Shown here: positions 9,696 to 52,440 of the stretch, piece by piece
Layout: each line of letters begins with the position of its first letter
Position numbering within the stretch: the stretch's first letter is position 1
Origin: Eledone cirrhosa
Lineage: Eukaryota
Direction: 5' to 3'
Assembly: GCA_964016885.1 (NCBI GenBank)
Contig: OZ024743.1
Location: forward strand, 257,734,001-257,798,000
DNA: 64,000 nucleotides
Notes under the pieces: generated by a model
What the model saw: the letters and a program-made list of their open reading frames with translations, nothing else
What the model was told of the DNA's origin: nothing
The model's database searches: none
Translations under genes and position numbers: made by a program

Positions 9696-9705
9696 CATAT
9701 ATATA

Positions 9706-16785: not shown

Positions 16786-16825
16786 CATATATATATATAT
16801 ACATATACATATATATAGATATATA

Positions 16826-18895
16826 TATTGTTATACTTTAGGAGGGTCATGTTGCCAATAAGAAACACACGCACCAGTTGATTTCACTTCAATTTATTAT
16901 AATAAATTTATAAATTTATAAATTTCTGGTTGGTTGGTTGGTTGGTTCCACAACGAGATAGTTGTTTATATATTGTCATAGTTCTTTCGTCACACACTCT
17001 ATTCTTGTGTTACCGTATATATTTGTGTTGTTGTTGTTGTTGAACTCTTCTGTTAATGAGGTGTCGGCCATATTTATACCGTCAATTTTGTCGGGATATC
17101 TATTGGTATTCTCTATAGTATCCTGATTTAGCTTTATCTACTTAAGCCACTTTAGTTTCTTGTTAAAGTGCTTATCACATTCTTGAGTAATGTATTGTTC
17201 TTCAGGGCGTATAAGGCTTATAAATATTAGTTTCTCTCTTGGTGTGGTGATCCTAGCTATTTCTTGTATTAGGTTACGTTATGTTTTTCTTGATGACTTA
17301 ATTCTCTATAATCTTCTTTTTTATGTTTAGAATTAATGTTCGTTTTAGCCTATCTGTTTGTTTTTTGGTGAGTTGTAATCTTCTAACGTCGGTGTTGATG
17401 GTGTTGGTGTAAACTCGGGATGAGGCGCATTCTTTTATGAAGTGTAGTTGTCGAGATGTTATGGTTTTTCGTAGACAACAGAACATGGTGGTTTTCAGTA
17501 TCTTGTTAGCCTGGCTAAGGCTTACGATATTTCGTTTCTGAATTTGTTTAGCAAGATTCTTTATCTGAAATCGTGTGTTGAAACCGATATTGTTATACTT
17601 TGGGAGGGTGATGTTGCCAATAAGAAACACACGCACCAGTTGCTTCCACTTCAATTTATAATAATAAATGTATAATAAATTTATTAATTTATAAATTTCT
17701 GGTTGGTTGGTTGGTTCCACAACCAGATAGTTGTTTATATATATAGTCATAGTTCTTTCGTCACACACTCTGTAACCTCTTCAGTGACTGGGGATTCCTT
17801 TCTTTGTTTCTGTGCTTCTCCTTTGTTCTGTCCTACGCCATTTTGTTTCTGTGTATGTGTTGTGTGCTCAGTCTGCGCATGCGCCACATCCGGGTGTCTG
17901 TGTGTGTTTATGTTCATTTATTTATTTGTTTATTTACATGTTACTGGTTGGTTGTTTGTTCTATGTGTGTGTGTGTGTTTTCATTTTGTCCTTAATTGTA
18001 AGTTGTGATGTTGCTGTTCCACTCATATTTTCTATTTAATTTTCGTTGTAATTCTTTTATGTTTATTGCCTCTGTAATTTGTCTAAACATTGCGTCTTTT
18101 CTGTGTGTAGATTCTATTTTTATTTCTATGTTCTCTAATTTAGCCTTGTGTTCTATTTTAGCATGTTGGTAGAGTACAGATGATTCTTTACTATCTGGAA
18201 GGTCTCGCCAGTGTTCATTTATCCGTTCCCCTACACTACGAGCTGTCTCACCTATGTACACTATATTTTTGTCTCTACATTGTCCTTCAGTACATCTTAT
18301 GCTATACACTACATTTCTAGTTTTACAGTTAATATGGGGGCTTATTTTACAGGTTATACATTTCTTATCTATACATGAGGGTCTTTGAAAGGGGTATGTC
18401 TTGCTAATAAGTGTTTTTACGGAGGTACCTGGTCTTTCTACTATCTTAATATTGAGTTTATGTTTATTTAGGGCCCTTCTAAATTTGTAAGCTAATTCAC
18501 CTCTAGGGGTTGTATCGATGAACATTACACTCTGGTATTTATTGCTATCATACCATGAGTTTATTCTATTTGCCTTGTTCCTAGTTCTTTCTATTCTATT
18601 CCAAAATTTGCTCCTATACAAGGGACAGGTCCCATTTATGTTATTATTTACCATTTTTTCCCATTTAGTTCTGGCTCCTCTATACACTCTGATTTTATCT
18701 CTCTGATTGTAGCCAGAGAACTGAAGAGGTCACAGAGTGTGTGACGAAAGAACTATGACTATATATAAACAACTATCTGGTTGTGGAACCAACCAACCAA
18801 CCAGAAATTTATAGATTTATAAACTTATAAATTTATAAATATATTATAAATTGAAGTGAAGGCAACTGGTGCGTGTGTTTCTTATTGGCAATAAT
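16826..18895 (-). mobile_element. Composite Penelope-like element: inverted pLTR (18719-18895, +), GIY-YIG 3' ORF (17992-18720, -), pLTR, 5' ORF of the next tandem unit, partial pLTR
   Basis: CKTRNVVYSIRC...YIGETARS...; three copies of the pLTR; HHR at 17745-17789 (-) and a partial HHR from 18721 (+). Confidence 0.85.
17745..17789 (-). ncRNA. Minimal HHR in PLE pLTR
   Basis: Same motif as 9019-9063. Confidence 0.7.
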
Positions 18896-19829: not shown

Positions 19830-22800
19830 TAAGACTTGTTCTAAATAGAACTACTGTGACAGTAATATCTGCGTAATATCCGGACTGCCTGGCGCTATAA
19901 AAGACAGATTCTATGAGACACTGATGCTCACTACCTCCCAAATAACCGACAGTGACTACATAGTTATCGCTGGCAACCTAAATGGTCACGTTGGACAACA
20001 TTGTGACGGCTATGACGGAATCCATGGAGGCTATGGGTTTGGTACTAGAAATGAGGAAGGCGCCAGAATCCTGGAATTCTGTGACGCAAATAACCTAACT
20101 ATCTGTAACTCTAACTTCAAAAAACGAGACAATCACTTGATCACCTACAGATCAGGGGAACATACCGACCAGGTAGATTATATCCTAACCAGAAGATGTG
20201 ACAGAGTATCTGTTGTAAACACTAAATCCCTCCCCCATGAAGAATGCACCTCCCAACATAGACTGATAATTAGCGACCTCATAGTCAGGACGAGACGTAC
20301 TCGACAACAGAAGAGGATTATCCTCAGGAGAAAAATATGGAAGTTAAAGGACCCCACAGCCAGTAATAAATTTAAAAGCATATTACTTGATGCTTTTGAC
20401 AGTAAGGAAGAGCATTTAGAGTCGTACGATATAGAGGAACAGTGGGAATTCCTGAAAGCAAACCTGCTGATGGCGGCAGATGAAGTCTGTGGCTGGAGCA
20501 GGCCTATAGGCAGGAGGAGAGTAACGTGGTGGTGGAACAGTAAGGTGGAGGAGTCAATTAAGGCCAAAAAGCAGGCTTGGAAAGAGTGGCGGGATGGGGA
20601 AGTAGAGAAGACTATCAAGTGGCCAGGAGGGAAGCTAGGAGACAAGTGTACTTCGCAAGAAGGGAAGCAGAGGAAAGAAAGTTCAAGCATGTTCTACAAC
20701 GTGAGGAGCAAAACCGTGAGGTGTTCAGGATTGCTAGGCAATGTGTCAAGGAAAACCGTGATATTGTCGGGGAGAAGTGTGTCCTAAAGTACAACATCAC
20801 TGACGCTGAAAGAAGGTAGCTTGGAAGTGTCACTACGAAAGGCTACTAAATGAGGAGAATAATTGGGAGAAAGACAGTCTCCCCCACATCGATCCAATAG
20901 AGGGACCAGCAGTGTTAGTCGAAGGTAGTATAATAAGTAAGGCAATCAAAGATATGAAGACGGGTAAGGCGGCTGGGCCTTGGAAATAGTTGTTGAAAAG
21001 CCGAAAGCTTCTGGAACGGTGGGACACACCATGGTCACCCGGATAGTAAACCAAGTCATACAGAATGGGGTTGTTCCGAGGGCTGGCGTAGCAGCAGCAT
21101 GATTAAGCTACAAGGGTAAAGGTGATGCCCTAGATAGGTGTAACTATAGAGGCATTAAATTAATCGACCAGGTCATGACGGTCACAGAAAAAGTAATAGT
21201 GCAACTAATCAGAGAGAGAATTGATCTAGATGAAATGTAGTTCGGGTTTGTGTCAGGTAAAAGTACCACAGACGCTCTTTTCATTGTACGACAACTACAG
21301 GAGAAGTACCTAACTAAAAGTAAACCCCTATACTTAGCTTTTGTCGACTTGGAGAAAGCCTTCGACCGAGTTCCCCGTTCCATTATCTGGTGGGCTCTTA
21401 GAAAACTAGGTGTTGATGAATGGCTTGTGAGAGCTATACAAGCCATGTATAAAGAAACAGTCAGCAAGGTTAGAATTAACAACGAACATAGTGAAGAGTT
21501 TAGCGTAAAAGTTGGTTTTGATCAGGGCTCCGTTCTTAGCTCCCTACTATTTATTATTGCCATTCAGGCTATAACAGCGGAGCTCAAGACCGGCTGCCCA
21601 TGGGAACTCCTATACGCAGATGATCTAACGCTCATAGCTGAATCAATGGCCGAACTAGAGAAGAAATTCCAAACATGGAAGCATGGCCTAGAATCAAAAG
21701 GCTTTAAAATTAACCTGTCTAAGACTAAAGTTCTAGTTTGTAGGAAGGAAAATAGGGCACCGGTCCTATCCGGGAAATGGCCATGCTCAGTGTGTAGGAA
21801 AGGAGTAGGCAGAAACTCCATTTTATGTCCCAAATGCAAAGTATGGGGGCATAAAAGATGTAGTGGTATCACAGGTAAGCTAACTAAGAACATAGATTTT
21901 ATATGTGGCCGGTGCTCTGGTGTAATAAGTAGCAGCAAGTGCCCACAAAATACTAGCTCATTCCATTGCACAGATGGTTCTATAGAAATAGTGGACACCT
22001 TCCGTTACTTGGGTGACAAAATCAGCAGTGGGGGAGGGTGCTCTGAAAGTACAGTAGCTAGAGTCAGAACTGGATGGAAAAAGTTCAGAGAGCTTATACC
22101 ACTATTAGCCACTAAAGGGTTCTCTCTGAAAATGAAAGGCAGGCTGTATAATGCCTGCATACGAACAGCAATGTTACATGGCAGAGAGACCTGGGCATTG
22201 TGTGCAGAGGATATACGCAGAGTAGAGAGGAACGAAGCTTGCATGCTCCGCTGGATGTGTAATAGTAATAAACGTGAACGGCAAAGCAGAAACGAACTAA
22301 GGAAAAAATTAGAAATAAGAGGGATCAGATGTTGTTTACTCGAGAGAAGAAAACGTTGGTATGGTCACGTGATGCGCATGAAAGACGACAGCTGTATATA
22401 AACGTGTAGAGCAATAACAATAGACGGTAGCCACGGAGTAGGCAGACCCAGAAAAACCTGGGACGACTTGCTAACTTCCGGCCTCACACACTTACACCTC
22501 TCCAAGACAATGTCACTGGACCGAGATCTTTGGCGATACACAGTAATATAGAAGACCCGCTTTACCTAAGTACAAAGTGAAACCTACTAGAGTCAATAGG
22601 CACCTCTAACAAAATACACCCCGTCCCACTACCCCCACCCCACCCCATCCACACCATCCCTTTCAATGTAAAGTTATGTTGGTACCACAACATCCAGTCC
22701 AAAACAAATGACGTCGTGTAGGTGTCACGACAAAAAACACACAGTCCAGGCTGTAATGTGGCCGTGTAGGTAACACGGTAAAAACCTCCCAGTCCACACT

Positions 22801-22962: not shown

Positions 22963-23017
<55 letters not shown>

Positions 23018-23040
23018 ATATATATACATGTATATATATA

Positions 23041-24843
23041 CAAAATGAGGGAGCAGCCATCGGCGTCAGCATAGCTGGTGATGTTGCCAACCTTTTCATG
23101 GTATGGTGGGAAAGGAGACTTAAAGATCTCCTTAATGAAAGCTCCATAGACCTCATCATGTACTCTCGTTATGTAGACGATATCAATATAGTTATAAGAA
23201 CACCCCCACTAGAGAGCACTAACAAGTTTGATTTAGAATGTAGCACGATGGAAAGCATCCAGCAGATAGCTAATTCCATACACCAGAGTATAACTGTAAC
23301 TATCGACTTCCCTTCCAAACACCCTAACGATAGACTACCTGTATTAGACACAGAACTCTGGATTAACACTATAGACGAGAGAGCCCAAATTCTCCACTCA
23401 CACTATGCTAAACCCATGGCCTCCAAATACCTCAGCAATGTCCAGTAGTGCTAAGTTTAATATTCTGATCGCAGATTTGGTACGAGTGATGAAGAATGTA
23501 TCCAGCATGTGCGACCCAACAGAAATGGAAAGACACATCCAACACTTCATCAACCGCATGCAGTTCTCTGGCTACAACCAAAGAGACAGAGTCAGAGTAC
23601 ACGAAGGAGCCATGGAAAAGTATAAGACTCTCATAGAACTGGACATGAAAGGAATTTGCCCATTATACAGGAGCAAATCATGGAATAGCTTAGATAGGGC
23701 TAGACATAAGATAGGGAAAGCCACCTCATGGTACGACAACCAGAGAGACCAGAGTGTCATGTTTGTGGACGCCACCCCTGGAGGGAAATTAGCTAACCAG
23801 TGTAGAAAGGCCCTCAGAAAGACGCACTTAAAAATAAAGGTGGTAGAAAAGTCAGAAACCACCATAAAATCCCTGATCAGCAAAACCTACCCTTTTAAGA
23901 AAACCCACTGTACCAATAGGAAATGTATCATATGTAAGGTGAAACCCCGGATAATGTGTAAAACTAGAAACGTAGTCTATAGCATAAGATGTACAGAGGG
24001 TACTTGCAGAAACATGACAACAACATACATAGGCGAGACAGCTCGTAGCATAGGTGAAAGGATAGACCAACACCGGGGGGAACTAAAAGGACGAAAAAAC
24101 GGGTCAGTACTATACGAACATGCTAGACAACAACATGACGGTAACATAGACAACATAGAAATTAGAATAATATCTAAACATAGAAATGACCCAGCAGATA
24201 AGCAAATCAGAGAGGCCAGTGAAATAGAAATTAGAAGACCAAAGCTAAACAGAAAGAAAGAATGGAATAACAACAACACCCAAACAAACAACACTGACCT
24301 AAGAGAAGTATAAATAAGTAAATAAAATAAGATAAATAAATACATACACAAGCACAATAACAACAAGCACATAAACACACACTAGTCACCCATCACACAG
24401 CAAACATAACACTATACACACACGCAAACGCATGCGCAAAGAAGACAAAATAAAATAAACAAACATGTAAATAAATAAATATATAGACAGACTGAATAAA
24501 AAATGGCGTAGACATACAACACAACAGGAGGAATATATAACACCACTGACGATGTTGCAGATGTGCAACGAAAGATTTATGATAAACTATATATATGCGT
24601 TTGTGTCTATATTGTATCTGTATTATTTTTGACCGTCGGTCAGTCAATGGCAACATTGAGGACCGAGTAAGTTAGATTACGGATATAAAAGACAGCGAGA
24701 AGCGAAAACCAACCAAACAGTGAGTGTGTTCTGTTATTAATTCTGGCAATATTACACAAATATCACCCTCCCCAAGTATAACAATATTTGTTTCGACACA
24801 CGATTTCATATAAAACAACCTCGCAAAACCAATTCATCGGCGC
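23041..24843 (+). mobile_element. 5'-truncated Penelope-like element (RT + Cys linker + GIY-YIG)
   Basis: GAAIG...RYVDDI...LPVLD; VVYSIRC...YIGETAR; degenerate HHR at ~24541-24583 (CTGACGA-T-GTTGC..GCAAC-GAAA). Confidence 0.9.
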
Positions 24844-27694: not shown

Positions 27695-30600
27695 GCGTGT
27701 GTGTGTGCGTGTGTATATATAGCAGAGTCATTCGAAGGTCAAAAGATATTTTTCAGCTTTTGTCTTATACGGAGAAGTGCGCGTGTGTGTGTGTGTGTGT
27801 GTGTGTATAAGTCTCTTTGTATGTTGATGTACGTGTGTGTATGTGTTTGTGTATATATATGTGTGTGCGTGTGTGTGTGTGTGGGTGGACCAGTATTTTT
27901 TCCCCCTGGTAAAATGGTGTACATTATTCGATTTTTTCAGTAAAATCGGTTCTCTTAATAGAACATCAAAAATCTTAACAATAAAAGGTGTGAAATGATA
28001 TTCACTATATATATATACACATACACATATTCACTACATATATATATATATATATACATATATATATACATATATATGCACATATATTTTTTTGTATTGC
28101 ACCATAGAGCATGTGTGTTTACGTGTGTCATTGTGTTTATATGTGGGTAGAGATGTGTGCTGATGTAGGTATGTATGTTGACGTGTGTATGTTGTGGGTT
28201 CGTCTTAGGGAGAAGTGTTTAAACGGGGTCCGTATTTGTTAATGAAGTAAGATTCCTTGCTGATGCGCTGGGTGTGGGTGGCATTATCTTTAAATTTGTA
28301 GAGGGGAAAGATTCTGAAGTTGGGATGATTTTGGGCGGCACAGGTATCAATGTGTTCACTCAGTGGTATTTTCCTGTATTCCCGTATTTTAATTTGGGAT
28401 CTATGGACAGTCATGCGTTGGCGGAGGCTGTTTTTGGTCTGGCCTATGTATTGTTCTCGACAACCTGAACAAGTTAATACATATATTAGATTTTCCGATG
28501 CACATGTGAAATTGTGTTTTACTATAAAACGTTGTCCATCTTTGAAATAGAATTCCGAACCCTCTATTAGGTTGATGCAAATGCCACAGTTGGGTCTATC
28601 GCATTTTTTTACTGTGGGTTTCGTTGTTGTGGTTGGCAGTACTTTGGCATGTGTTAAGATGTTTTTCATTGACTTGGATTGTCTTTTGCTCTTTATGATA
28701 TCGTGTGTTCGTAGAATTTGGTTCATTCTATGGTCCTTTTTCAATACAGGGATGTTCTGGAGGATGGTGTCAAAGGCCTCATTGTTGAGGGGGTTGTGTG
28801 TGGAGATGTATGGAAGAGCTTTTAGTTTTGGTTGATTTACTTTAGGGTGTCTAAGGTCCTGGGTACTGAGTTTTAGGGCACGTTGGATTCCATTGTCAAT
28901 TAGTGATGCAGGGTAGTCCCTGCCTATGAGTGTGTCGTTTAGTTCTTGTAGCCGTAAGTAGCAGATGTTTTTATTGGAGACTATAGTACAGATTCTCTTG
29001 GCTAAGTTGTAGGGAATATTAATTTTAACGTGTCTAGGGTGGCAAGAGTTGAAGGGGAGATATTGCTTGGAGTCTGTGGGCTTGTAGTATATGTCTGTTT
29101 CTATTTTTTTTGTTATGGATCTTAATGAGGATGTCGAGGAAGGGGAGTTGTTGATGGCTGTATTCCATCGTGAAGTTAATATGTGTGTTGAGCCCATTTA
29201 TAAGGGTGTGAAATTCTTTAAGTTTTTCGATGTTTTCGTGCCAAAGGATGAAGCAGTCATCTAGATATCGCTTCCAGTTCCTTTCAATGTGTAAGTGGAG
29301 GGTGTTTCCAAATTTGTTTAGGACTTTAGTGTAGAGGGTGATTTCCAGGTATCCCATGACTAGGTTGGCATAAGTAGGGGCTGTTTTCGTTCCCATAGCG
29401 GTCCCAGATTTCTGCCTGTAGGGTTTGTTATTGAAAACGAAGTAATTGTTCTCCAAGATAAATTTGAGTCCCTCTATCACGAATTCTTTTTTGATGCGTT
29501 GTGGGAGTTCATTGTGGAAATTATCCAGCCAGAATTGGATAGCTTCTATTCCTAGGTTGTGGGGGATGTTGGAGTATAGGTTGACTACATCGAACGTCAC
29601 TAGTAGGGTTTGTTCAGAAAGTGGCATATTAGGGAGGTGATTGAGCATATCTAGGTCGTCCCTTATATAGCTTTTGATGTGCTTGAGGAAGGGTTTGAGA
29701 AGGGTATCAATGAAGTTGCTAAGACGGTGCGTTTCGCAAGCGGGGCCTGCTATTATAAGTCTTAATTTGAGATCATTGGGTGAGGGGAAATTGATGACTA
29801 TGTCTGTGACTTCCTTGCATGCCTTACTGATTGATTCGCTTTTATGTACTTTAGGGATACCGTAGAAAAGGCTGGATTTACTTGTGAAGTCTGTGATGAA
29901 GCTGAATTCCTTGTTAGTGAGTCCTTCTTTGTATTGGTTGATTAGAGTTTTTAGGTTTCTCATAATTTTCTGTTGATTGTAGTGTTCAGCCTTTTCGTAG
30001 TATGTTTCGTTTTCCAAAGTGGAGAGCGCTAAGTTGATATAGAATTCTGTCTCCATTAGGACTACTGTACTCCCTTTATCAGCCTCTTTAATTGTAATGG
30101 TTCTGTCGGTTTTTAATCTATTTAATTCTTCCCATTCTTTCTTGTTGAGGTTTGGCTTGTGTTTTTTTCTGTGCAAGTGTTGGTAAGGGAAGTTTGTGAT
30201 GTGTTCACAGAATTCGTCCAGGATTTTATTTCTACCTTTTGCTTCTATTTCTGGCTAATGATTCATCCTCATTGTACTGGTCGAATAGTTGTTCACTAAG
30301 TCGTAACTTTCTACAGAAGTCTGTGATGTCTTCCTTCATTTCATAGTAGTTAGGACGTAGTGGGGTCGGTGTGAATTTAAGACATTTGGAGAGTAAGTTG
30401 ATAAGGTTGGGTGTTGGTTCTGCACTAGTAAGATTGATAATTTTTATTACTATCGGTTTTTCCTCCCTGTCTTGTGTTATTTTGTTTGCCTGTATCTGTG
30501 TGCTGTGTCTAAAAAATGGTTGGGGTAGAGGGGTTGTCTGCTGATGTTAAGTGGTCTCCTGTGTTTGTTATATTCCTTGTTGTTGTAAAATGTGGTTCGG

Positions 30601-30942
30601 GTTGGTGGTTGTAGATTGAATGGGGTGTTCCTGAAACTGCGAGTATGGGTGTGTGTTTCTATGTGCCATGTTGTATTGTGGTGTTATAAGTGGCCTACGT
30701 TGTTGGTTGTATCGTGTGGTGTGGGTTTGTTGTGTATTGTGGAAGTGAGAGTTGAGAAAATGGTAATTACCTTGCTGTCCCCTTGAAGCGGGGAAGTTGT
30801 TGCATCTATCATGGCGGTGGTATCTTTTCCCTATGTTTGACGATGAGGAATCCGCGTAGTAGTTGAGTGATTTGGTATGGTGTCTCCTTGAAGGGGGAAA
30901 GTTGTAAATGTCATTCTGGGGGAGATGATTTCTTGGGTTTTT
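27042..30942 (-). mobile_element. Penelope-like element (Neptune-like), largely complete, frameshifted
   Basis: ADKG, FYGIPKVHK, FDVVNLYSNI, GTAMG, RYLDD (29034-30176); CDRPNCGIC...TCASENLIYVLTC...YIGQT (28205-29197); frameshift in a T-run ~29105; decayed HHR ~27163-27205. Confidence 0.92.
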
Positions 30943-30953
30943 ATACATATACA

Positions 30954-31003
<50 letters not shown>

Positions 31004-31161
31004 TATATACATATATATATATACATATATATATACGTGAGTATAGACATAGAATATTCGAAAATATTCTGTATGTTTATAATAAACATTTTGAAGACCT
31101 AATCGCTATAGAATAGAATACGTCACGTATTACAATTAGATTCTCGATAAAAGCAAGGGAA

Positions 31162-31204
31162 GTAATCTACGCGTTTCATTCTTGTTAGAATTCATCAGGA
31201 CTAC
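31162..31204 (-). ncRNA. Minimal type I HHR, first of 9 minus copies (every 310 bp to 33642)
   Basis: Reverse complement of 34145-34187. Confidence 0.9.
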
Positions 31205-34144
31205 ATATCCAGTGCTTTTATCGAGAATGACACAGCTAGAGACTTATAGAATACTTAGCTGTGTACTGGAACTGGTTTGAAAGAGCGGTTGCCGGTCCGG
31301 CAGAAATTAGAAATTGGAATAAATGCTCTGAAATAGCGATATATATGTGAGTATAGACATAGAATATTCGAAAATATTCTGTATGTTTATAATAAACATT
31401 TTGAAGACCTAATCGCTATAGAATAGAATACGTCACGTATTACAATTAGATTCTCGATAAAAGCAAGGGAAGTAATCTACGCGTTTCATTCTTGTTAGAA
31501 TTCATCAGGACTACATATCCAGTGCTTTTATCGAGAATGACACAGCTAGAGACTTATAGAATACTTAGCTGTGTACTGGAACTGGTTTGAAAGAGCGGTT
31601 GCCGGTCCGGCAGAAATTAGAAATTGGAATAAATGCTCTGAAATAGCGATATATATGTGAGTATAGACATAGAATATTCGAAAATATTCTGTATGTTTAT
31701 AATAAACATTTTGAAGACCTAATCGCTATAGAATAGAATACGTCACGTATTACAATTAGATTCTCGATAAAAGCAAGGGAAGTAATCTACGCGTTTCATT
31801 CTTGTTAGAATTCATCAGGACTACATATCCAGTGCTTTTATCGAGAATGACACAGCTAGAGACTTATAGAATACTTAGCTGTGTACTGGAACTGGTTTGA
31901 AAGAGCGGTTGCCGGTCCGGCAGAAATTAGAAATTGGAATAAATGCTCTGAAATAGCGATATATATGTGAGTATAGACATAGAATATTCGAAAATATTCT
32001 GTATGTTTATAATAAACATTTTGAAGACCTAATCGCTATAGAATAGAATACGTCACGTATTACAATTAGATTCTCGATAAAAGCAAGGGAAGTAATCTAC
32101 GCGTTTCATTCTTGTTAGAATTCATCAGGACTACATATCCAGTGCTTTTATCGAGAATGACACAGCTAGAGACTTATAGAATACTTAGCTGTGTACTGGA
32201 ACTGGTTTGAAAGAGCGGTTGCCGGTCCGGCAGAAATTAGAAATTGGAATAAATGCTCTGAAATAGCGATATATATGTGAGTATAGACATAGAATATTCG
32301 AAAATATTCTGTATGTTTATAATAAACATTTTGAAGACCTAATCGCTATAGAATAGAATACGTCACGTATTACAATTAGATTCTCGATAAAAGCAAGGGA
32401 AGTAATCTACGCGTTTCATTCTTGTTAGAATTCATCAGGACTACATATCCAGTGCTTTTATCGAGAATGACACAGCTAGAGACTTATAGAATACTTAGCT
32501 GTGTACTGGAACTGGTTTGAAAGAGCGGTTGCCGGTCCGGCAGAAATTAGAAATTGGAATAAATGCTCTGAAATAGCGATATATATGTGAGTATAGACAT
32601 AGAATATTCGAAAATATTCTGTATGTTTATAATAAACATTTTGAAGACCTAATCGCTATAGAATAGAATACGTCACGTATTACAATTAGATTCTCGATAA
32701 AAGCAAGGGAAGTAATCTACGCGTTTCATTCTTGTTAGAATTCATCAGGACTACATATCCAGTGCTTTTATCGAGAATGACACAGCTAGAGACTTATAGA
32801 ATACTTAGCTGTGTACTGGAACTGGTTTGAAAGAGCGGTTGCCGGTCCGGCAGAAATTAGAAATTGGAATAAATGCTCTGAAATAGCGATATATATGTGA
32901 GTATAGACATAGAATATTCGAAAATATTCTGTATGTTTATAATAAACATTTTGAAGACCTAATCGCTATAGAATAGAATACGTCACGTATTACAATTAGA
33001 TTCTCGATAAAAGCAAGGGAAGTAATCTACGCGTTTCATTCTTGTTAGAATTCATCAGGACTACATATCCAGTGCTTTTATCGAGAATGACACAGCTAGA
33101 GACTTATAGAATACTTAGCTGTGTACTGGAACTGGTTTGAAAGAGCGGTTGCCGGTCCGGCAGAAATTAGAAATTGGAATAAATGCTCTGAAATAGCGAT
33201 ATATATGTGAGTATAGACATAGAATATTCGAAAATATTCTGTATGTTTATAATAAACATTTTGAAGACCTAATCGCTATAGAATAGAATACGTCACGTAT
33301 TACAATTAGATTCTCGATAAAAGCAAGGGAAGTAATCTACGCGTTTCATTCTTGTTAGAATTCATCAGGACTACATATCCAGTGCTTTTATCGAGAATGA
33401 CACAGCTAGAGACTTATAGAATACTTAGCTGTGTACTGGAACTGGTTTGAAAGAGCGGTTGCCGGTCCGGCAGAAATTAGAAATTGGAATAAATGCTCTG
33501 AAATAGCGATATATATGTGAGTATAGACATAGAATATTCGAAAATATTCTGTATGTTTATAATAAACATTTTGAAGACCTAATCGCTATAGAATAGAATA
33601 CGTCACGTATTACAATTAGATTCTCGATAAAAGCAAGGGAAGTAATCTACGCGTTTCATTCTTGTTAGAATTCATCAGGACTACATATCCAGTGCTTTTA
33701 TCGAGAATGACACAGCTAGAGACTTATAGAATACTTAGCTGTGTACTGGAACTGGTTTGAAAGAGCGGTTGCCGGTCCGGCAGAAATTAGAAATTGGAAT
33801 AAATGCTCTGAAATAGCGATATATATGTGAGTATAGACATAGAATATTCGAAAATATTCTGTATGTTTGTAGATTACTTCCCTTGCTTTTATCGAGAATC
33901 TAATTGTAATACGTGACGTATTCTATTCTATAGCGATTAGGTCTTCAAAATGTTTATTATAAACATACAGAATATTTTCGAATATTCTATGTCTATACTC
34001 ACATATATATCGCTATTTCAGAGCATTTATTCCAATTTCTAATTTCTGCCGGACCGGCAACCGCTCTTTCAAACCAGTTCCAGTACACAGCTAAGTATTC
34101 TATAAGTCTCTAGCTGTGTCATTCTCGATAAAAGCACTGGATAT

Positions 34145-34187
34145 GTAGTCCTGATGAATTCTAACAAGAATGAAACGCGTAGATTAC
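34145..34187 (+). ncRNA. Minimal type I HHR, first of 9 plus copies (every 310 bp to 36625)
   Basis: GTAGTC-CTGATGA-ATTC-TAACAA-GAAT-GAAAC-GC-GTA-GATTAC; palindromic ACGCGT stem III; GUA triplet. Confidence 0.92.
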
Positions 34188-36828
34188 TTCCCTTGCTTTT
34201 ATCGAGAATCTAATTGCAATACGTGACGTATTCTATTCTATAGCGATTAGGTCTTCAAAATGTTTATTATAAACATACAGAATATTTTCGAATATTCTAT
34301 GTCTATACTCACATATATATCGCTATTTCAGAGCATTTATTCCAATTTCTAATTTCTGCCGGACCGGCAACCGCTCTTTCAAACCAGTTCCAGTACACAG
34401 CTAAGTATTCTATAAGTCTCTAGCTGTGTCATTCTCGATAAAAGCACTGGATATGTAGTCCTGATGAATTCTAACAAGAATGAAACGCGTAGATTACTTC
34501 CCTTGCTTTTATCGAGAATCTAATTGTAATACGTGACGTATTCTATTCTATAGCGATTAGGTCTTCAAAATGTTTATTATAAACATACAGAATATTTTCG
34601 AATATTCTATGTCTATACTCACATATATATCGCTATTTCAGAGCATTTATTCCAATTTCTAATTTCTGCCGGACCGGCAACCGCTCTTTCAAACCAGTTC
34701 CAGTACACAGCTAAGTATTCTATAAGTCTCTAGCTGTGTCATTCTCGATAAAAGCACTGGATATGTAGTCCTGATGAATTCTAACAAGAATGAAACGCGT
34801 AGATTACTTCCCTTGCTTTTATCGAGAATCTAATTGTAATACGTGACGTATTCTATTCTATAGCGATTAGGTCTTCAAAATGTTTATTATAAACATACAG
34901 AATATTTTCGAATATTCTATGTCTATACTCACATATATATCGCTATTTCAGAGCATTTATTCCAATTTCTAATTTCTGCCGGACCGGCAACCGCTCTTTC
35001 AAACCAGTTCCAGTACACAGCTAAGTATTCTATAAGTCTCTAGCTGTGTCATTCTCGATAAAAGCACTGGATATGTAGTCCTGATGAATTCTAACAAGAA
35101 TGAAACGCGTAGATTACTTCCCTTGCTTTTATCGAGAATCTAATTGTAATACGTGACGTATTCTATTCTATAGCGATTAGGTCTTCAAAATGTTTATTAT
35201 AAACATACAGAATATTTTCGAATATTCTATGTCTATACTCACATATATATCGCTATTTCAGAGCATTTATTCCAATTTCTAATTTCTGCCGGACCGGCAA
35301 CCGCTCTTTCAAACCAGTTCCAGTACACAGCTAAGTATTCTATAAGTCTCTAGCTGTGTCATTCTCGATAAAAGCACTGGATATGTAGTCCTGATGAATT
35401 CTAACAAGAATGAAACGCGTAGATTACTTCCCTTGCTTTTATCGAGAATCTAATTGTAATACGTGACGTATTCTATTCTATAGCGATTAGGTCTTCAAAA
35501 TGTTTATTATAAACATACAGAATATTTTCGAATATTCTATGTCTATACTCACATATATATCGCTATTTCAGAGCATTTATTCCAATTTCTAATTTCTGCC
35601 GGACCGGCAACCGCTCTTTCAAACCAGTTCCAGTACACAGCTAAGTATTCTATAAGTCTCTAGCTGTGTCATTCTCGATAAAAGCACTGGATATGTAGTC
35701 CTGATGAATTCTAACAAGAATGAAACGCGTAGATTACTTCCCTTGCTTTTATCGAGAATCTAATTGTAATACGTGACATATTCTATTCTATAGCGATTAG
35801 GTCTTCAAAATGTTTATTATAAACATACAGAATATTTTCGAATATTCTATGTCTATACTCACATATATATCGCTATTTCAGAGCATTTATTCCAATTTCT
35901 AATTTCTGCCGGACCGGCAACCGCTCTTTCAAACCAGTTCCAGTACACAGCTAAGTATTCTATAAGTCTCTAGCTGTGTCATTCTCGATAAAAGCACTGG
36001 ATATGTAGTCCTGATGAATTCTAACAAGAATGAAACGCGTAGATTACTTCCCTTGCTTTTATCGAGAATCTAATTGTAATACGTGACGTATTCTATTCTA
36101 TAGCGATTAGGTCTTCAAAATGTTTATTATAAACATACAGAATATTTTCGAATATTCTATGTCTATACTCACATATATATCGCTATTTCAGAGCATTTAT
36201 TCCAATTTCTAATTTCTGCCGGACCGGCAACCGCTCTTTCAAACCAGTTCCAGTACACAGCTAAGTATTCTATAAGTCTCTAGCTGTGTCATTCTCGATA
36301 AAAGCACTGGATATGTAGTCCTGATGAATTCTAACAAGAATGAAACGCGTAGATTACTTCCCTTGCTTTTATCGAGAATCTAATTGTAATACGTGACGTA
36401 TTCTATTCTATAGCGATTAGGTCTTCAAAATGTTTATTATAAACATACAGAATATTTTCGAATATTCTATGTCTATACTCACATATATATCGCTATTTCA
36501 GAGCATTTATTCCAATTTCTAATTTCTGCCGGACCGGCAACCGCTCTTTCAAACCAGTTCCAGTACACAGCTAAGTATTCTATAAGTCTCTAGCTGTGTC
36601 ATTCTCGATAAAAGCACTGGATATGTAGTCCTGATGAATTCTAACAAGAATGAAACGCGTAGATTACTTCCCTTGCTTTTATCGAGAATCTAATTGTAAT
36701 ACGTGACGTATTCTATTCTATAGCGATTAGGTCTTCAAAATGTTTATTATAAACATACAGAATATTTTCGAATATTCTATGTCTATACTCACATATATAT
36801 CGCTATTTCAGAGCATTTATTCCAATTT

Positions 36829-38383
<1,555 letters not shown>

Positions 38384-38384
38384 A

Positions 38385-39640
38385 TTTTAATTTTTAATTT
38401 CTGCCTCACCGGCAACCGCTCTGTATAATCAGTTCCTGATTATTTATTAGAATTCTATAAGAATATAACATCAGTGATCTCAGTAGACAGGAGGGAGTAG
38501 TTAGCCTTGATAAGCATCAATAAATGCGAAACAAGGCCTTGTTGGCTTATCTCCCTTGTTTGCTGAGATTAAAGTAAGTGACTTTGTCACTACGCTAAAA
38601 CAATAGCATACGGTCTTCAAAATCCTTTTAATTAAGCATAAAGTGTATTGCAAAATACATTATATATACATTCATATATATATTGCTATTTCAGAGCTCC
38701 AATTCTAATTTTTAATTTCTGCCTGACCGGCAACCGCTCTGTATAATCAGTTCCTGATTATTTACTAGAATTCTATATGAATATAACATCAGTGATCTCA
38801 GTAGACAGGAGGGAGTAGTTAGCCTTGATAAGCATCAATAAATGCGAAACAAGGCCTTGTCGGCTTATCTCACCTTGTTTGCTGAGATTAAAGTAAGTGA
38901 GTTTGTCACTACTCTAAAACAATAGCATACGGTCTTCAAAATGCTTTTAATTAAGCATAACGTGTATTGCAAAATACATTATATATACATTCATATATAT
39001 ATATTGCTATTTCAGAGCTCCAATTCTAATTTTCAATTTCTGCCTGACCGGCCATCGCTCTGTATAATCAGTTCCTGATTATTTACTAGAATTCTATAAG
39101 AATATAACATCAGTGATCTCAGTAGACAGGGGGGAGTAGTTAGCCTTGATAAGCATCAATAAATGCGAAACAAGGCCTTGTCGGCTTATCTCCCCTTGTT
39201 TGCTGAGATTAAAGTAAGTGAGTTTGTCACTACTCTAAAACAATAGCATACGGTCTTCAAAATGCTTTTAATTAAGCATAAAGTGTATTGCAAAATACAT
39301 TATATATACATTCATATATATATATTTCTATTTCAGAGCTCCAATTCGAATTTTCTATTTCTGCCTGACCGGCCATCGCTCTGTATAATCAGTTCCTGAT
39401 TATTTATTAGAATTCTATAAGAATATAACATTAGTGATCTCAGTAGACATGAGGGAGTAGTTATCCTTGATAAGCATCAATAAATGCGAAACAAGGCCTT
39501 GTCGGCTTATCTCCCCTTGTTTGTTGAGGTTAAAGTAAGTGAGTTTGTCACTACTCTAAAACAATAGCATACGGTTTTCAAAATGCTTTTAATTAAGCAT
39601 AAAGTGTACTGCAAAATACATTATATATACATTCATATAT
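38385..39640 (+). repeat. ~320-bp tandem array, ~3.9 units, second retrozyme-like family
   Basis: CTGCC anchor at 38401, 38719, 39040 and 39361; HHRs at ~38503, 38821, 39142 and 39463; copies differ by a few percent. Confidence 0.9.
38821..38865 (+). ncRNA. Type I HHR, U3-A8 variant (best of 4 copies)
   Basis: AGCC-TTGATAA-GCAT-CAATAA-ATGC-GAAAC-AAGGCCTT-GTC-GGCT; 12-nt palindrome ACAAGGCCTTGT; GUC triplet. Confidence 0.85.
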
Positions 39641-39654
39641 ATATATATATATAT

Positions 39655-40099: not shown

Positions 40100-41842
40100 A
40101 TGGAGAGAGCGGTTGACAGATCTGGATGTAAGGAGAGCTGGATGATCATCAACGAGATCACAGGGAGGAAGAAAAGGTGTTCGAGTCAGATCCAGGGAAC
40201 GGGGCCCGAGGATAGGAAGAGGAAATGGCTAGACCATTTTAGGACCCTACTAGGAGAGCCACCCTCCACAGCCCAGAGCACTGGGGAGATCAGGCGGCTG
40301 TTTGAGGAACTGGATGTTGAGACAGAGCCCTTCACCAGAGGGGAGCTTGAGAGAGCCAAGAAGAAGATCAAGGAGGGCAGGGCTCATGGAGAAGATGGAG
40401 TGGCATCAGAGGTGATGAAGAGGTGTGATTTTGATGATATCATCCTGGGGTTCTGTAACGGGGCACTGGAGAAAGGAGTTGCCCCGAATCAGTGGAGGAT
40501 CAGTAACATCGTCCCAGTGCCAAAGAAGGGAGATCACTCTGACACCAACAACTACCGGGGGATCTCACTGATGTCACTTGTGGCAAAGACCCTCAACAGG
40601 ATGATTCTTAACAGGATCCAGCCTGAGATGGAGAAGAAGCTCAGGGACAACCAGAACGGCTTCAGAGAGGGTAGATCAACCACCTGTCACATCCTGATGC
40701 TGAGGAGGATATTAGAAGGAGCTAGAGCAAAGTGCCTTCCTGCGGTCATGGTTTTCATTGACTTTAGGAAGGCCTTTGATTCTGTGGACCGTTACTGCCT
40801 GATGAAGTTCTTACAGGCTTATGGAATCCCCAAGAAGATAGTGGACCTGATATCACTGCTCTACACCAACACCAAAGCCCAAGTCATTACACCTGATGGG
40901 ATGACAGATTTCTTTGAGATACTGGCTGGAGTGCTCCAGGGAGATACATTGGCTCCATACCTTTTTGTCATCGTAGTGGACTATTGTATGCGCCTTGCAC
41001 TGGAGAAACACCAGGACACTGGCTTTACTGTAGCACCGGCTCAGAGCAGGAGAGTTGGGGCGAAAAAGGTATCGGATGCTGAATTTGCCGACGACATAGT
41101 TTTGGTGACAAATACAGTGAAGGAGGCAGAGGATTTGATGCGGGAGGTTGAGACTGTGTCGATGAATGTGGGGCTGAGAATGAATGAGACTAAAACAAAA
41201 TATCTGGTAGAGAATGTTGAGAAGCCAGAGGGGATCACTAATGTAGGCGGGAAGCCGCTGGAATTGGTTGAGGACATCCTGTATTTGGGAGCAAAGATTG
41301 GGAATACGGAGTATGATGTGGTTGAGAGGAAGAGCAAGGCCTGGGCGGCGTGTCACAGCTTGAGATCGGTGTGGAAGTCGGACCTTCGTAGAGATCTGAA
41401 AATCCGCCTCTTCATTGCTGTAGTGGAGTTTGTGCTGCTGTATGGATCTGAGACTTGGATACTGACCAAGAGACTCACTCAGATGGTGGATGGGTGCTAC
41501 ACGAGAATGCTGAGGATGGCTCTGAACATTAATCAGTATACACTGAGGATGAAAAACTCAGAGCTGTATGGGAGCATCCCAAAAGTCAGCTCAAAAGTGA
41601 CACAGAGGAGACTGAAGTTGGCTGGACATACTCACCGACATCCAGAGTTGACATTGCACTCAGTGCTCCTTTGGGAGCCCCTACATGGACACACTAGAAG
41701 AGGAAGACCAAGGTTAACATATGTTGATGCCCTCAGGACAGACACTGGTCTGTTGGAGATGCAGGATATGGCAGCGATAATGAGGGACAGAGACCGCTGG
41801 AGAGAACTCGTCCATGGATCTCGGGAATTTTACCCGCCTTAG
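40100..41842 (+). mobile_element. 5'-truncated RTE-like LINE, uninterrupted 580-aa RT frame
   Basis: [38 protein letters not shown]; stop followed directly by (TAGA)n. Confidence 0.93.
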
Positions 41843-42939: not shown

Positions 42940-45900
42940 TCAGGATTTGGGCACCATGGCCCATTCGAGAAGAGAATTACTGTTTGCGGAGACATATCCG
43001 GGTGTGGGTGGTTTGTCCGGGATTACTTGGAGGAATTTGTCCAAAGACTTCTTGAATTTTGTGTGGTCAGTTTCTGTTTTGACGTGTCCTGGTGTGATGT
43101 TGAAGAGAGCAGGGCCGATTGAGGTGAAATAATTGTGCCGTATTGTTGTTATGAGTTGCGATTTAGATTTTTGAATGGGACGGATAGCACGGGGCCCAAG
43201 CCTTGGGTGTATCTTGAAGGCGATGCCAACATCATTTGGGCAGTGATGATGGAACATTTTCCACATCATGCAGATAATATAACGCTCACGGCGACGTTGG
43301 AGTGAGTAAAGTTTCAGGTTTTCTAATCGACCCCAGTAGTCAAGGTCTGACATGCCATCTATCTTTTTCGTGATTGCCCTTTGAGGAGCTTCAAGTTTCA
43401 TGATACTTTGTTTCGTGTGGGGAGACCACAGTGGACAACAGTATTCAAGGTGTGGTCGGGTAAAAGTAGAGAAGAGAAGGATAATGGTGCGGGAATCTCT
43501 CGACTGGAAGGTTCTGAGGATCCAGGAACACATTCTGCGGGCCATGTCAACTTTGCTGCTTATATGCGTGGTCCAGCTTATGTTGCTGTCCACGGTTACT
43601 CCCAAGTCTCTGATGTTGTTAGATGCCACGAGAGTTTCCCCGGAGGGAAGGGAGTACGGGAGTTTCAGAGTATCCTCTTTTCCAAAGTGGATCAGTTCGA
43701 ATTTGTCTTCGTTCAGTAACATGTTGTTCTTTTCTGCCCATTGGGTAACAGCCAGTAGGTCTGACTGAAGGCTTATCCGGTCATCCACGCCATTGATGAC
43801 CTTTTGGAGCTTGGAATCATCAGCGAAAATTTTAATGTTGCTGTGTTTCATGATGTCAGTGATGTCATTAATATAGATGATGAAGAGAAGTGGGCCCAAC
43901 ACAGTGCCTTGTGGGACCCCACTACTGACTTTGGCTGGGCTTGATTTGACTCCCTCAACTACAACATGTTGGGTTCTGTTTGACAGGAAGATCTTGATCC
44001 ACTGCAGCAGCTTTCCAGTGACACCAATATTGGACAGCTTTCTCAGTAGAATGTTATGATCAACCCTGTCAAAGGCCTTGCTGAAATCAAGGTAGATAAC
44101 ATCAGTGTTGGAACCCTCTCCCAAGGCTCTCAAAATGTCATCAAAGTGATGCAGTAGCTGCGTCAGGCAATCCCTTCCATTACAGAATCCATGCTGGTTG
44201 GAGTTCAGCATATTGTTACTCTCAAGGAAGTGGGTCATTCGCGATCTCACCACTCTCTCAAATACCTTAATGATATGAGAGGTGAGTGAGATTGGACGGT
44301 AATTCACGGCAAGGGATTTGTTTCCCTTTTTGAAAACTGGGACAACAGACTGGGATAGAAGGTTTTCTGGCACATATCCAGCATCCAGTGAGTTCCGCCA
44401 CAGATTGGCAAGAGGAGATGCAAGTTGGTGTTGACACGCCCTCAAGACACAAGCAGGGAACCTATCGGGACCTACTGCTGAATTATGCTTGATTTCCTTT
44501 ATTGCCGCCAAGACATCAGGGGCGCCAAACGTTATGTCCGATAAGGTGTAATGGGGAGTAACATCGCCGATACAGCCCAGATCGGCCATATCAGGATTGC
44601 TGAAAACAGAGCAGTATTGTTTCTGCAGTATCTCACCCATGGTTTTAGCATTGTCTTGAAGAGTGCCATTTTCATCAATTAGAGGGCCAACAGTAGAGCC
44701 AGTGATTTTGTGTTTTTTTGCAAATGAAAAGAACACTTTGGGATTGAGTTTGATCTTCTCAATGGCCCAGGCCTCTTCAGCTCTTCTCTGATTTTTGATG
44801 AGGGACATTATGTTATTTTGGAGGTTATGTTTTTTAATCTCTAGTGATGAAATGGCAGTCAAGTTGATGTGTTGCTGCTGACAGTATTTCAGCTTGTTGA
44901 TTTTTTTGTTCGTTCTCTTAATTTTTCTGATGAGCGTTTTTCTATTTCTAGGGATTCTGCTCTTAGATTTGTTTTTAGTTCTTAATGGGGTGTGTTTAGC
45001 ACATATGTTTGTAACAGTGTCCACAAATGTCTGCCAGGACTTTTTGATGTTGGTGGGTGTATGAGTGTGCGTGAAGGACCAGTCGACATGTGCAAGATCA
45101 TGACTGATCGCTTCCCAGTTTGCATTGTGGAAATCCATAGCGTCAAACGGATGGACAGGAGAGATGACATTGGGTTTGTATATTGGACGGTGGAATCTCA
45201 GATCACAGAGAACCATGTCATGATCAGAGAGTAGAGTTTTCTCCACTGCAATATTGTGGATATTGTCAGTGTGATTGCTGAAAATTAAGTCTAGGACGTT
45301 TTTGTGGCACCTGGTTGGTTCGAGCACCAATTGGGATAGGAAGAAATCATCCATGAAGTCAAGAAGCGATTCCACAGCTTCCCTGTCAGAGGTTGAGGCA
45401 GAAGAACCTGGTGGCAGGCTGTTTGTAGACCAGTCAACTCCGGGGAGGTTGAAGTCCCCCATCATTAAGATGTTGTCAGGGTGACACTCTTGGATGAAAC
45501 ACTTTATGCTGTTGAGGCATTCCTTGAAGCATGGTACAGGCGTTTGGGGTGGCCTATAGAGCCCAACTACTAATAGGTTGTTGGTTTGACTGAATACAGT
45601 GACTGCTTCACAGTATCCATTAGTGAATATGTTCATAGCCTCTGTTGAGAAAGAATTATGGACATAAATGGCAGTTCCGCCCTTTCTTCTGCCAGCGCGA
45701 TCAGCACGGATGGCTTTGAAATTTTTCACTTTCACCTCGGCTTCCAAGTGGAGGTTACTGAGATGGGTTTCAGTGAGGACGAAGAAAGGGATGTGGTTTG
45801 GATGGACATCAATCCAGTCCTCCAGGAATTTGATCTTCCATTTTTGAGTATTGGTGGAAGGGCTGATGCCTTGGGCGTTAAGCAAAAATGTAGAGGCGAG

Positions 45901-45960
45901 AGTGGATGGTTTTAATTGTTTTGGTGTGTTGTTAATTTGTTTGTTTGTTAATGGCAGCAA
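42940..45960 (-). CDS. LINE ORF2: AP endonuclease + reverse transcriptase (1006 aa, intact)
   Basis: [50 protein letters not shown]. Confidence 0.93.
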
Positions 45961-46705
45961 TGGGAGTTTGTGCAGTGGGGTGACAGTGGAGGGTGGTGCT
46001 GGGTGATAGCTCGAATGTTTTTTTCCAGTTCTTTTGCCAGATTCATTATGGCTAAAAAAGAGGAAGAAGTTTCCTGTTTAGAAGACTGTTGGTGACTGTG
46101 GTAGTGGTTATTTTTATGTAGGTTATGGTTTTTGTTTTTGCTTTTATTTTTATTTTCATTTGTCCGACGGGTCCCCGGGAGATGGGTAAAGGGACAATCC
46201 CGGTCTAAACACAATCTGTCTCGCAGGGAAAAGCGGCAGATTTGTGGATTTCTTGTTTGAGTTATTGGTGGTTGTGTTGGTGTTAAATTAGAGTATGTAT
46301 TATGGTGGTGGCTGTTTGTGGGGATAGATCGTTTTGTCCTAGGTAAATGGGTGAATTTGCAGCCACTATCCGTACATATTCTATAGCGTAGAGAGTAGCG
46401 GCAAATGATGGGGTTTCGAGTGGGTGGGTATGTGGGTGTGTGTGTTGTGAGAGGTGTAGATGATGGTTTGGGTAGGATTTGACGACCTTTGTGGACTGTG
46501 GGAGGGAGAGTTCTTGTTCTGGTATTAGAAGGTAAATTCCTTGACATAGCAGTAGACAAAAATGTTGTAGTAGTAGTAGTAGTAGTAGGCAGAGATGTTG
46601 GCAGTGGTGATGATTGGACTGCTGGGCCAGAGAAAGGATGTGGCGTTTCATGCTGTGAGACAGAGGCTACTGGGGGTCAATAGTTTCATTTAGTAGATCG
46701 GCCAT
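45948..46705 (-). CDS. LINE ORF1 with two CCCH-type fingers; one frameshift at ~46672-46676
   Basis: [20 protein letters not shown] and [20 protein letters not shown]; one extra C in the C5 run would join [10 protein letters not shown] to the finger frame. Confidence 0.65.
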
Positions 46706-51700: not shown

Positions 51701-52266
51701 CTTTCAAGGCATGGTAAAAGGACAGTTTTTCTTCATCGACAGAATTCATAGTTGGAGCATACACACTCACCAGGGTAGCATATCTTCCCTTGTCCAGCGG
51801 AACTCTCATGGACATAAGACGCTCACTAATCCCTACTGGGAACTCTTCCAATTTATTCACCAGCACAGTCTTAACAGCAAATCCTACCCCAGCATCTCTT
51901 CTGGTTCCTTCATCTCTTCCTTTCCAGAAGAATGTATATTCTCCACAAAATTCCGTAAGATGACCATCTCCAGCTAATCTCGTCTCAGATAAAGCCACGA
52001 TGTCAAGATCGTAACGTCGAAGCTCCTTTGCAACAAGAGCGGTCCTTCGTTCAGGACGCTCCAAAGAATCCCTGTCAAGCAGCGTCCGTACGTTCCAGCA
52101 GCCAAGACTAGATGCCCTGTTTGGCTCTATTACAATGGCACGATGACGGGCGGGCCCAGGTTGTGATAACTTGGGACCCCTGCCCTTATTGCCAATGATC
52201 TTTTTTGTTCCAGAACCCAAATTGGCAATTATCTCGTTTACATTGTTCTGGAACATCATTGAATTG
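48345..52266 (-). mobile_element. Near full-length RTE (BovB-like) LINE
   Basis: Single APE-RT frame; 3' UTR interrupted by (CA)n and (TAA)n; terminal motif TGGCCATACTCG..AACGAG..GGCAGCCA.CA at 48345-48385. Confidence 0.9.
48714..52250 (-). pseudogene. RTE ORF (APE + RT + three C2H2-type fingers) with one in-frame TAG at 51045-51047
   Basis: ORFs 51045-52295 and 48714-51035 are in the same frame; WNVRTL, LSETR, GDFNARVG, TDHRL, LYADD, CxxC...HxxxH repeats. Confidence 0.9.
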
Positions 52267-52440
52267 GTAAAAAAAAAAAAAAAAAGTAATAACAATAGTA
52301 ATAATAATAATAATAATAATAATAGTACACTATCAATAATTATTAATGCACTCGTGCAATGCCTGTGCGTGACGAATATTTTTAAAGTGAGGACAGACTG
52401 TGCACTGAGCCAATCCCACTCTCTGAGAGACAGTAGCTAT

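Follow-up and report, generated by a model that had tools for sequence, protein, structure and literature searches.

How does a tandem array come to reverse its direction half-way along and to lie inside a microsatellite? The question is raised by a locus in the window, the whole 64,000-nt stretch of Eledone cirrhosa DNA that was analysed, where a 310-nt unit (a period computed in this window) is repeated in two head-to-head arms. The features of the locus are listed below; monomer positions are numbered from the first base 3′ of the predicted hammerhead cut.

30942–31036, no strand: (TA)n target microsatellite, left side
31037–33868, minus strand: left arm, 2832 bp, 9.14 units of the 310-nt monomer
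33642–33684, minus strand: first of nine complete predicted hammerhead cores of the minus arm
33868–33869, no strand: head-to-head junction, without exact overlap
33869–36828, plus strand: right arm, 2960 bp, 9.55 units
34145–34187, plus strand: first of nine complete predicted type I hammerhead cores of the plus arm (motif and folding)
36793–36828, plus strand: 36-nt "tail" (monomer 132–167), on the long end and missing from the short end
36829–38383, no strand: (TA)n target microsatellite, C-interrupted, right side

The left arm extends from monomer 90 at its inner (5′) edge to 131 at its outer (3′) end, an end of the short class defined below, and has no substitutions. The right arm extends from 308 to 167, a long-class end, and has two substitutions, at 34217 and 35778. 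There is no poly(A) at either outer end, the flanks are not mirror images of each other, and a target-site duplication is not readable because the insertion sits inside (TA)n. A preliminary description of this DNA had given arms of ~2830 bp (minus) and ~2960 bp (plus) with about nine units each, 3′ ends that run into (TA)n on both sides, and a junction within 3 nt of the predicted cut. These statements held: both outer ends join (TA)n directly, and the junction (33868|33869) sits 3 nt upstream of the predicted scissile bond (33871|33872). Bases 33869–33871 could also be read as left-arm sequence with one substitution, so that the right arm would start exactly at the cut. We rejected this reading and assigned them to the right arm, because they match it at 3 of 3 positions without change and single-unit substitutions occur at ~4 in 10,000 in the array units of the sampled loci. 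The contig pieces listed for runs X1, X2, X3, X4, X7 and X19 did not bridge the junction and run X23 gave none, a result that is uninformative either way.

The array holds 18 complete predicted hammerhead cores, nine per arm. The predicted core consists of a 6-bp stem I, CUGAUGA, a 5-bp stem II, GAAA, a one-pair stem III with a palindromic tetraloop, and a GUA triplet; when the unit was folded, stems I and II enclosed an unpaired core. The type I hammerhead call rests on motif and fold, since Rfam gives no match for it at the gathering score. No long frame was found in the three sense frames of the unit, nor any open reading frame (ORF) of 120 codons inside the array. LTRs are absent, with the arms adjoining TA directly, and the element is dispersed over many loci. 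A non-coding tandem repeat within 150–450 bp, with a predicted type I hammerhead in every unit and no LTR, is a non-LTR retrozyme. The window array is a young insertion of such a non-coding 310-nt non-LTR retrozyme, with a predicted hammerhead whose self-cleavage is likewise a prediction.

Metazoan non-LTR retrozymes (PMC7229834, PMC7761336, bioRxiv 10.64898/2026.07.22.740005) share with the 310-nt family the non-coding tandem repeat of 150–450 bp with a G+C content below 50%, one type I hammerhead per unit with a weak stem III and palindromic tetraloop as in the axolotl motif, and co-occurrence with Penelope-like elements (PLEs). The axolotl retrozyme, whose stem III has the same form of one pair and a palindromic tetraloop, cleaves better as a dimer (PMC7229834). 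The published elements are known from RNA expression and cleavage, whereas the 310-nt family is known here from DNA sequence alone. Two runs with other organism labels, X4 and X7, matched on window 33710–33958, each have the unit as a single 340-nt contig (310 plus 30). This is the form of a closed loop in a 31-mer assembly and may reflect an RNA circle, a tandem array or carry-over, the run type being unrecorded. Only contig runs of unrecorded type contain the unit and none is listed as RNA; contigs cannot separate an RNA circle from a DNA tandem.

A search of the genome with the unit gave at least 439 matches, from 40 scored of 113 candidates, with 150 listed. Three samples were taken. Sample A consists of all 19 other loci among the matches listed, chosen by identity and not by their ends. 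Sample B consists of 40 stretches at the first long-end pattern matches on contig C1, of ~65 places listed, and sample C of 20 of the 36 short-end pattern matches. The long-end pattern has 759 forward-strand matches in the genome, which suggests some 1,500 long ends; this figure is an estimate from the forward matches because reverse matches were counted several times per place.

Head-to-head junctions were found in 72 of the 79 stretches, 73 junctions in all outside the window, and 17 of the 19 loci of sample A were two-armed with the same layout. Four stretches (L016, L018, L052 and L072) had one arm only; among the rest, L031 meets an assembly gap, L034 leaves its stretch at 27 units, and L068 gave no alignment. 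An old and divergent junction in L019 was excluded, as were duplicates in L020 and L063; for the compound loci L004, L020 and L063 the outer end was assigned manually. Both arms were multi-unit at most loci, with median lengths of 4.3 and 3.7 units that were weakly correlated (Spearman 0.29, p = 0.013). Arms of 10–17 near-identical units recurred, one arm (L034) had at least 27 units, and the loci identical to the window's monomer, the youngest, reached 17. Three two-armed loci (L021, L071 and L075) had less than one unit per arm.

The preliminary description had proposed that one cDNA stopped where self-cleavage had created the RNA's 5′ end. With the window left out, 1 of 146 inner breakpoints lay within 3 nt of the predicted cut (3.3 expected), 1 within 5 nt (5.2 expected) and 4 within 10 nt (9.9 expected). 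The breakpoints were spread mildly unevenly over the monomer (chi-square p = 0.017), and the emptiest bin was 280–310, which holds most of the ribozyme core (5 versus 14.6 expected). In the window itself, the right arm reads through nine intact sites and carries 3 bases upstream of the predicted cut; self-cleaved RNA would lack these bases. Both counts speak against the proposed stop, and a ribozyme-directed inversion, which we had considered as a candidate, is ruled out by the 146 breakpoints. The closeness of the window junction to the predicted cut is most likely chance, and the ribozyme plays no part in choosing where arms meet. Another locus (L059:6851–6859) has the breakpoint pair 308 and 89, near-identical to that of the window (308 and 90); its long and short arms are exchanged, and 7 nt are inserted at the junction. 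As one case in 146 this is within chance, and we have no explanation for it.

Plotting the ends on the monomer had been expected to reveal clusters both of outer ends and, at the cleavage site, of inversion points. Only the outer ends clustered. They formed two classes, a short one at 115–139 (mostly 130 or 139), within which ends at 131–139 are indistinguishable since the TA run within the unit is continuous with that of the target, and a long one at 160–170 (mostly 165). One short and one long end were combined in 71 of 72 elements outside the window, a count that omits one element in L037 that was cut off. The exception, L006, has two short ends. By sample, the combination was found in 16 of the 17 two-armed loci of sample A, 37 of 37 of sample B and 18 of 18 of sample C; sample A was not chosen on ends, B was chosen on the long end and C on the short end. 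A free choice between two sites would give short and long pairs in about half of the elements. The sequence by which the long end exceeds the short one is 36 nt in the window and 26–35 nt between the commonest ends (130 or 139 versus 165).

The first 12 flank bases were TA repeat on 71 of 73 left sides and 71 of 73 right sides, in samples B and C partly by construction. The side of the long end showed no pattern relative to the C/G polarity of the microsatellite (16, 12, 12 and 9), and flank polarity was the same in 9 cases and opposite in 6. CAAT is often the last motif before the TA run, both at long ends of the retrozyme and at ends of two PLE families (window 16825 and 36826; L125).

These ends have a counterpart in PLEs. 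PLE insertions often carry an inverted 5′-truncated copy and a 30–40-bp tail at one end only, and several families target (TA)n (PMC8557442, PMC3846280). Purified PAc, a PLE protein from the green anole, cleaves both strands, extends them and is predicted to form a dimer; its reverse transcription starts at two internal positions in the RNA, downstream of the hammerhead, which mark the limits of the tail, and hammerhead cleavage is not required, unprocessed RNA being the dominant substrate in vitro (PMC11167929). The 310-nt arrays share with endonuclease-bearing PLEs the inverted 5′-truncated copy, the one-sided tail of ~30–40 bp, the (TA)n or AT-rich target and two internal starts 3′ of the hammerhead, and thus have the features expected of mobilisation by a PLE: an inverted copy, a one-sided tail of the 30–40-bp type and an AT-rich or microsatellite target. 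They differ in coding capacity, as the array has no reverse transcriptase or endonuclease ORF, and in that both arms are multi-unit, unlike PLE copies. They also differ in the use of the start sites: for PAc in vitro, start-site use did not differ between the strands (PMC11167929), whereas the 310-nt arrays use one site per arm in 71 of 72 elements. The two outer ends are two fixed sites, one per arm, and constitute the known Penelope "tail", a point that the preliminary description had overlooked.

Among 10,597 GIY-YIG candidates in the genome, 50 loci were examined, and none contained a PLE with the conserved block of the retrozyme. A two-family DNA profile run over the window, the 79 array loci and these 50 loci found only other retrozyme families. 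Because no such PLE was found, we infer the PLE partner from the footprint of the insertions. A hammerhead-like palindrome in L125 was considered as a link to the partner and rejected, as it is a separate small insertion. The retrozyme repeats of PMC7761336 are described, in the available text, as having no motif that points to a partner; in the 310-nt family the insertion ends do point to one.

The window contains PLE-type sequences of its own. A copy at 16825–18891 on the minus strand repeats the array's layout, with an inverted copy and a one-sided tail of ~25 nt; it also has a hammerhead and a tandem terminal repeat, and lies in (TA)n. Alignment reveals a GIY-YIG-like motif in its frame, which has no Pfam match. 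A PLE-type coding stretch at 28205–30254, a separate element beyond the TA run from the array, matches Pfam RVT_1 and GIY-YIG. Further PLE-type coding stretches at 9700–11260 and 22963–24313 have no Pfam match, and each of these three stretches is frameshifted or truncated. LINE-type reverse transcriptase frames lie between TA runs at 40100–41842, 42940–46077, 48714–52436 and 19849–22401, of which 40100–41839 matches RVT_1.

The sequences at which the arms meet look like end joining of two cDNAs. At 35 of 54 insert-free junctions the arms overlapped by at least 2 nt, compared with 17.8% for random joins (p = 3e-14). The scattered inner breakpoints are thus accompanied by overlaps of 2–5 nt or by short inserts. 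Inserts were present at 19 of the 73 junctions, and several were copied from nearby monomer sequence. In one case (L038:3598–3871) 272 nt of unrelated sequence are captured between the arms.

Comparison of variants showed that the two arms of a locus have a common source. The same haplotype was found in both arms at 55 of 57 loci, while shuffling gave a mean of 16.1 and a maximum of 27 in 5,000 shuffles; the loci were those with at least 250 positions covered per arm, leaving out L006, L019 and L037. In sample B, which comes from a single contig and has 14 haplotypes, the arms agreed in 26 of 28 loci (shuffled mean 4.8, maximum 12). Variants private to a locus were present in every unit of each arm (17 of 17 units in L041 and 14 of 14 in L044, for instance) and therefore point to a one-monomer bottleneck at or before insertion. 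Such a bottleneck is what rolling-circle copying would give, and a linear transcript of a homogeneous array would be compatible with it as well. Partial variants were rare (70 in 176,994 bases) and most were confined to a single unit, with a few recurring at whole-unit spacing inside an arm (L038 and L034). Only L050 and L054 had discordant arms. In L050 (576–4586) one variant is present in 7 of 7 short-arm units and, in the long arm, in only the 2 innermost of 6 units, which may mean that copying switched from one RNA to another, or that gene conversion followed later.

We consider it likely that each array was written in one event by a PLE enzyme, which cut a TA microsatellite, primed from the two resulting ends and probably copied round a circular monomer. 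Under this model, tandem transcripts would self-cleave, probably as dimers, and be ligated to monomer circles, as in published retrozymes. A PLE protein, probably as a dimer, would cut both (TA)n strands; one cut end would begin copying at RNA position ~165 and the other at ~130–139. Each cDNA would run for several rounds and stop at a largely arbitrary point, and the 3′ ends of the two cDNAs would then be joined through microhomology-mediated end joining.

Among the alternatives, the one that differs least from this model keeps the PLE enzyme and the two-ended priming and replaces the circle by long uncleaved linear transcripts of existing arrays. Unprocessed RNA was indeed the dominant substrate of the PLE in vitro (PMC11167929), cleavage would be slowed by the weak stem III, one arm reaches at least 27 units, and the source arrays are so homogeneous that linear copies would look homogeneous too. 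Private variants fixed in every unit of both arms nevertheless require that the sequence passed through a single monomer at some stage. A linear template can yield only shorter arrays, whereas arms of 10–17 near-identical units recur, and adjacent tandem ribozymes self-cleave efficiently in other retrozymes (PMC7229834). We regard a linear template as unlikely. Growth after insertion, in which a short two-armed copy is extended locally by unequal crossing-over or slippage, is the route put forward in the Discussion of bioRxiv 10.64898/2026.07.22.740005, and both the three loci with less than one unit per arm and the few variants at whole-unit spacing would agree with it. It appears improbable, as arms below one unit cannot expand in tandem register and both arms are multi-unit at most loci; moreover, most partial variants affect single units and the youngest loci already have up to 17 units.

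The priming scheme of the preliminary description, in which both TA ends prime as in L1 twin priming and one cDNA halts at a self-cleaved RNA 5′ end, is harder still to maintain. L1 twin or dual priming (PMC10760644, PMC2837659) has the same layout of two target-primed cDNAs with 3′ ends outward and a microhomology join, and the window arm starts 3 nt from the predicted cut, a breakpoint that recurs in L059. The 310-nt arrays, in contrast to L1 insertions, have no poly(A), both starts are fixed internal sites, and the arms, each many units long, do not follow one another along a single linear RNA. In 4 of 71 loci, against 7.1 expected, the inner edge of the long arm lay within 15 nt of the short arm's start, so that L1-type twin priming on one linear RNA does not fit, because the first arm rarely stops near the second priming site. 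The lack of a breakpoint cluster at the cut and the intact sites within the window arm speak against the halt. Priming from both TA ends as such agrees with the TA-joined 3′ ends and the two joined cDNAs, and this part of the earlier scheme stands. Self-priming has been suggested for PLE inverted repeats (PMC3846280), and a cDNA that folds back and copies itself into the second arm would account for the shared variants; one junction, in L025, falls on the monomer's own 16-nt inverted repeat. A copy cannot outgrow its template, yet the longer arm is the short-ended one in 39 and the long-ended one in 32 of 71 loci, and this lack of a regularly longer arm disfavours fold-back. Inner breakpoints no more than 20 nt apart were seen in only 10 of 71 loci (9.4 expected), and mirrored single-unit variants in both arms were not seen. 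Fold-back thus seems very improbable. An assembly artefact from a chimeric fold-back read would agree with the lack of a bridging contig piece at the window junction; given flanks that are not mirror images, outer ends that differ in monomer position between the arms, and the same end rule at 73 other junctions whose breakpoints vary, we give it hardly any credence.

The 310-nt family is accompanied by related repeats. A second family in the window (38384–39646) has a 321-nt repeat that is ~75% identical over monomer 59–210, and 1,989 candidates for it were found in the genome. In its hammerhead core a U3–A8 pair replaces C3–G8, and the palindromic stem III is longer. The window copy has a single arm, with a 5′ edge near the long-end position. 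Long and short ends were combined at 20 of 27 two-armed places tallied for the 321-nt family, with 2 long–long pairs and 5 places with an end outside both classes; this tally was taken from alignment rows, a subset of 40 places scored, with ends not checked base by base. More families that resemble the unit or have a hammerhead-like core were seen at L081:2437–2883, L061:4159–4411, L025:339–874, L036:1253–1695, L024:2405–3453 and L125:5209–5315. The family in L081 has head-to-head arms with one long and one short end.

Shared ribozymes, co-occurrence and phylogeny had already led to the proposal that PLEs are the partners of animal retrozymes (PMC7229834, bioRxiv 10.64898/2026.07.22.740005), and the copying of RNA circles as multimers is the standing model in the retrozyme literature. 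Inverted arms, tails and microsatellite targets, all present in the 310-nt family, were not found for retrozymes in the texts searched or in literature searches; the word "inverted" has no match in the available text of PMC7229834 and one in that of bioRxiv 10.64898/2026.07.22.740005, within the reference list, and the supplements of both might show array layouts. The preliminary description had known of no such geometry for retrozymes; we likewise found none described, but the layout has been described for PLEs. The element is thus of a known kind, and the combination, together with the rule of one site per arm, appears to be unreported.

These insertions bear on the identity of the enzyme that mobilises animal retrozymes and on whether the arrays arrive complete or lengthen after insertion. 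The insertion ends provide structural evidence for PLE machinery behind animal retrozymes, and the rule of one short and one long end is a sharp constraint on the mechanism of PLE integration, for which the ~1,500 young, near-identical insertions (an estimate) make this genome a natural data set. In its fullest form, which we put forward tentatively, as a possibility somewhat short of even, retrozyme arrays would be born whole: a PLE dimer would act on one ribozyme circle, with one reverse transcriptase per fixed site, ~30 nt apart, for each DNA end, and both would roll round the circle. If this is true, the arrays would provide proof, at the level of the genome, that PLEs retrotranspose by rolling-circle copying, and the PLE tail would arise from an obligate division of labour with one site per end.
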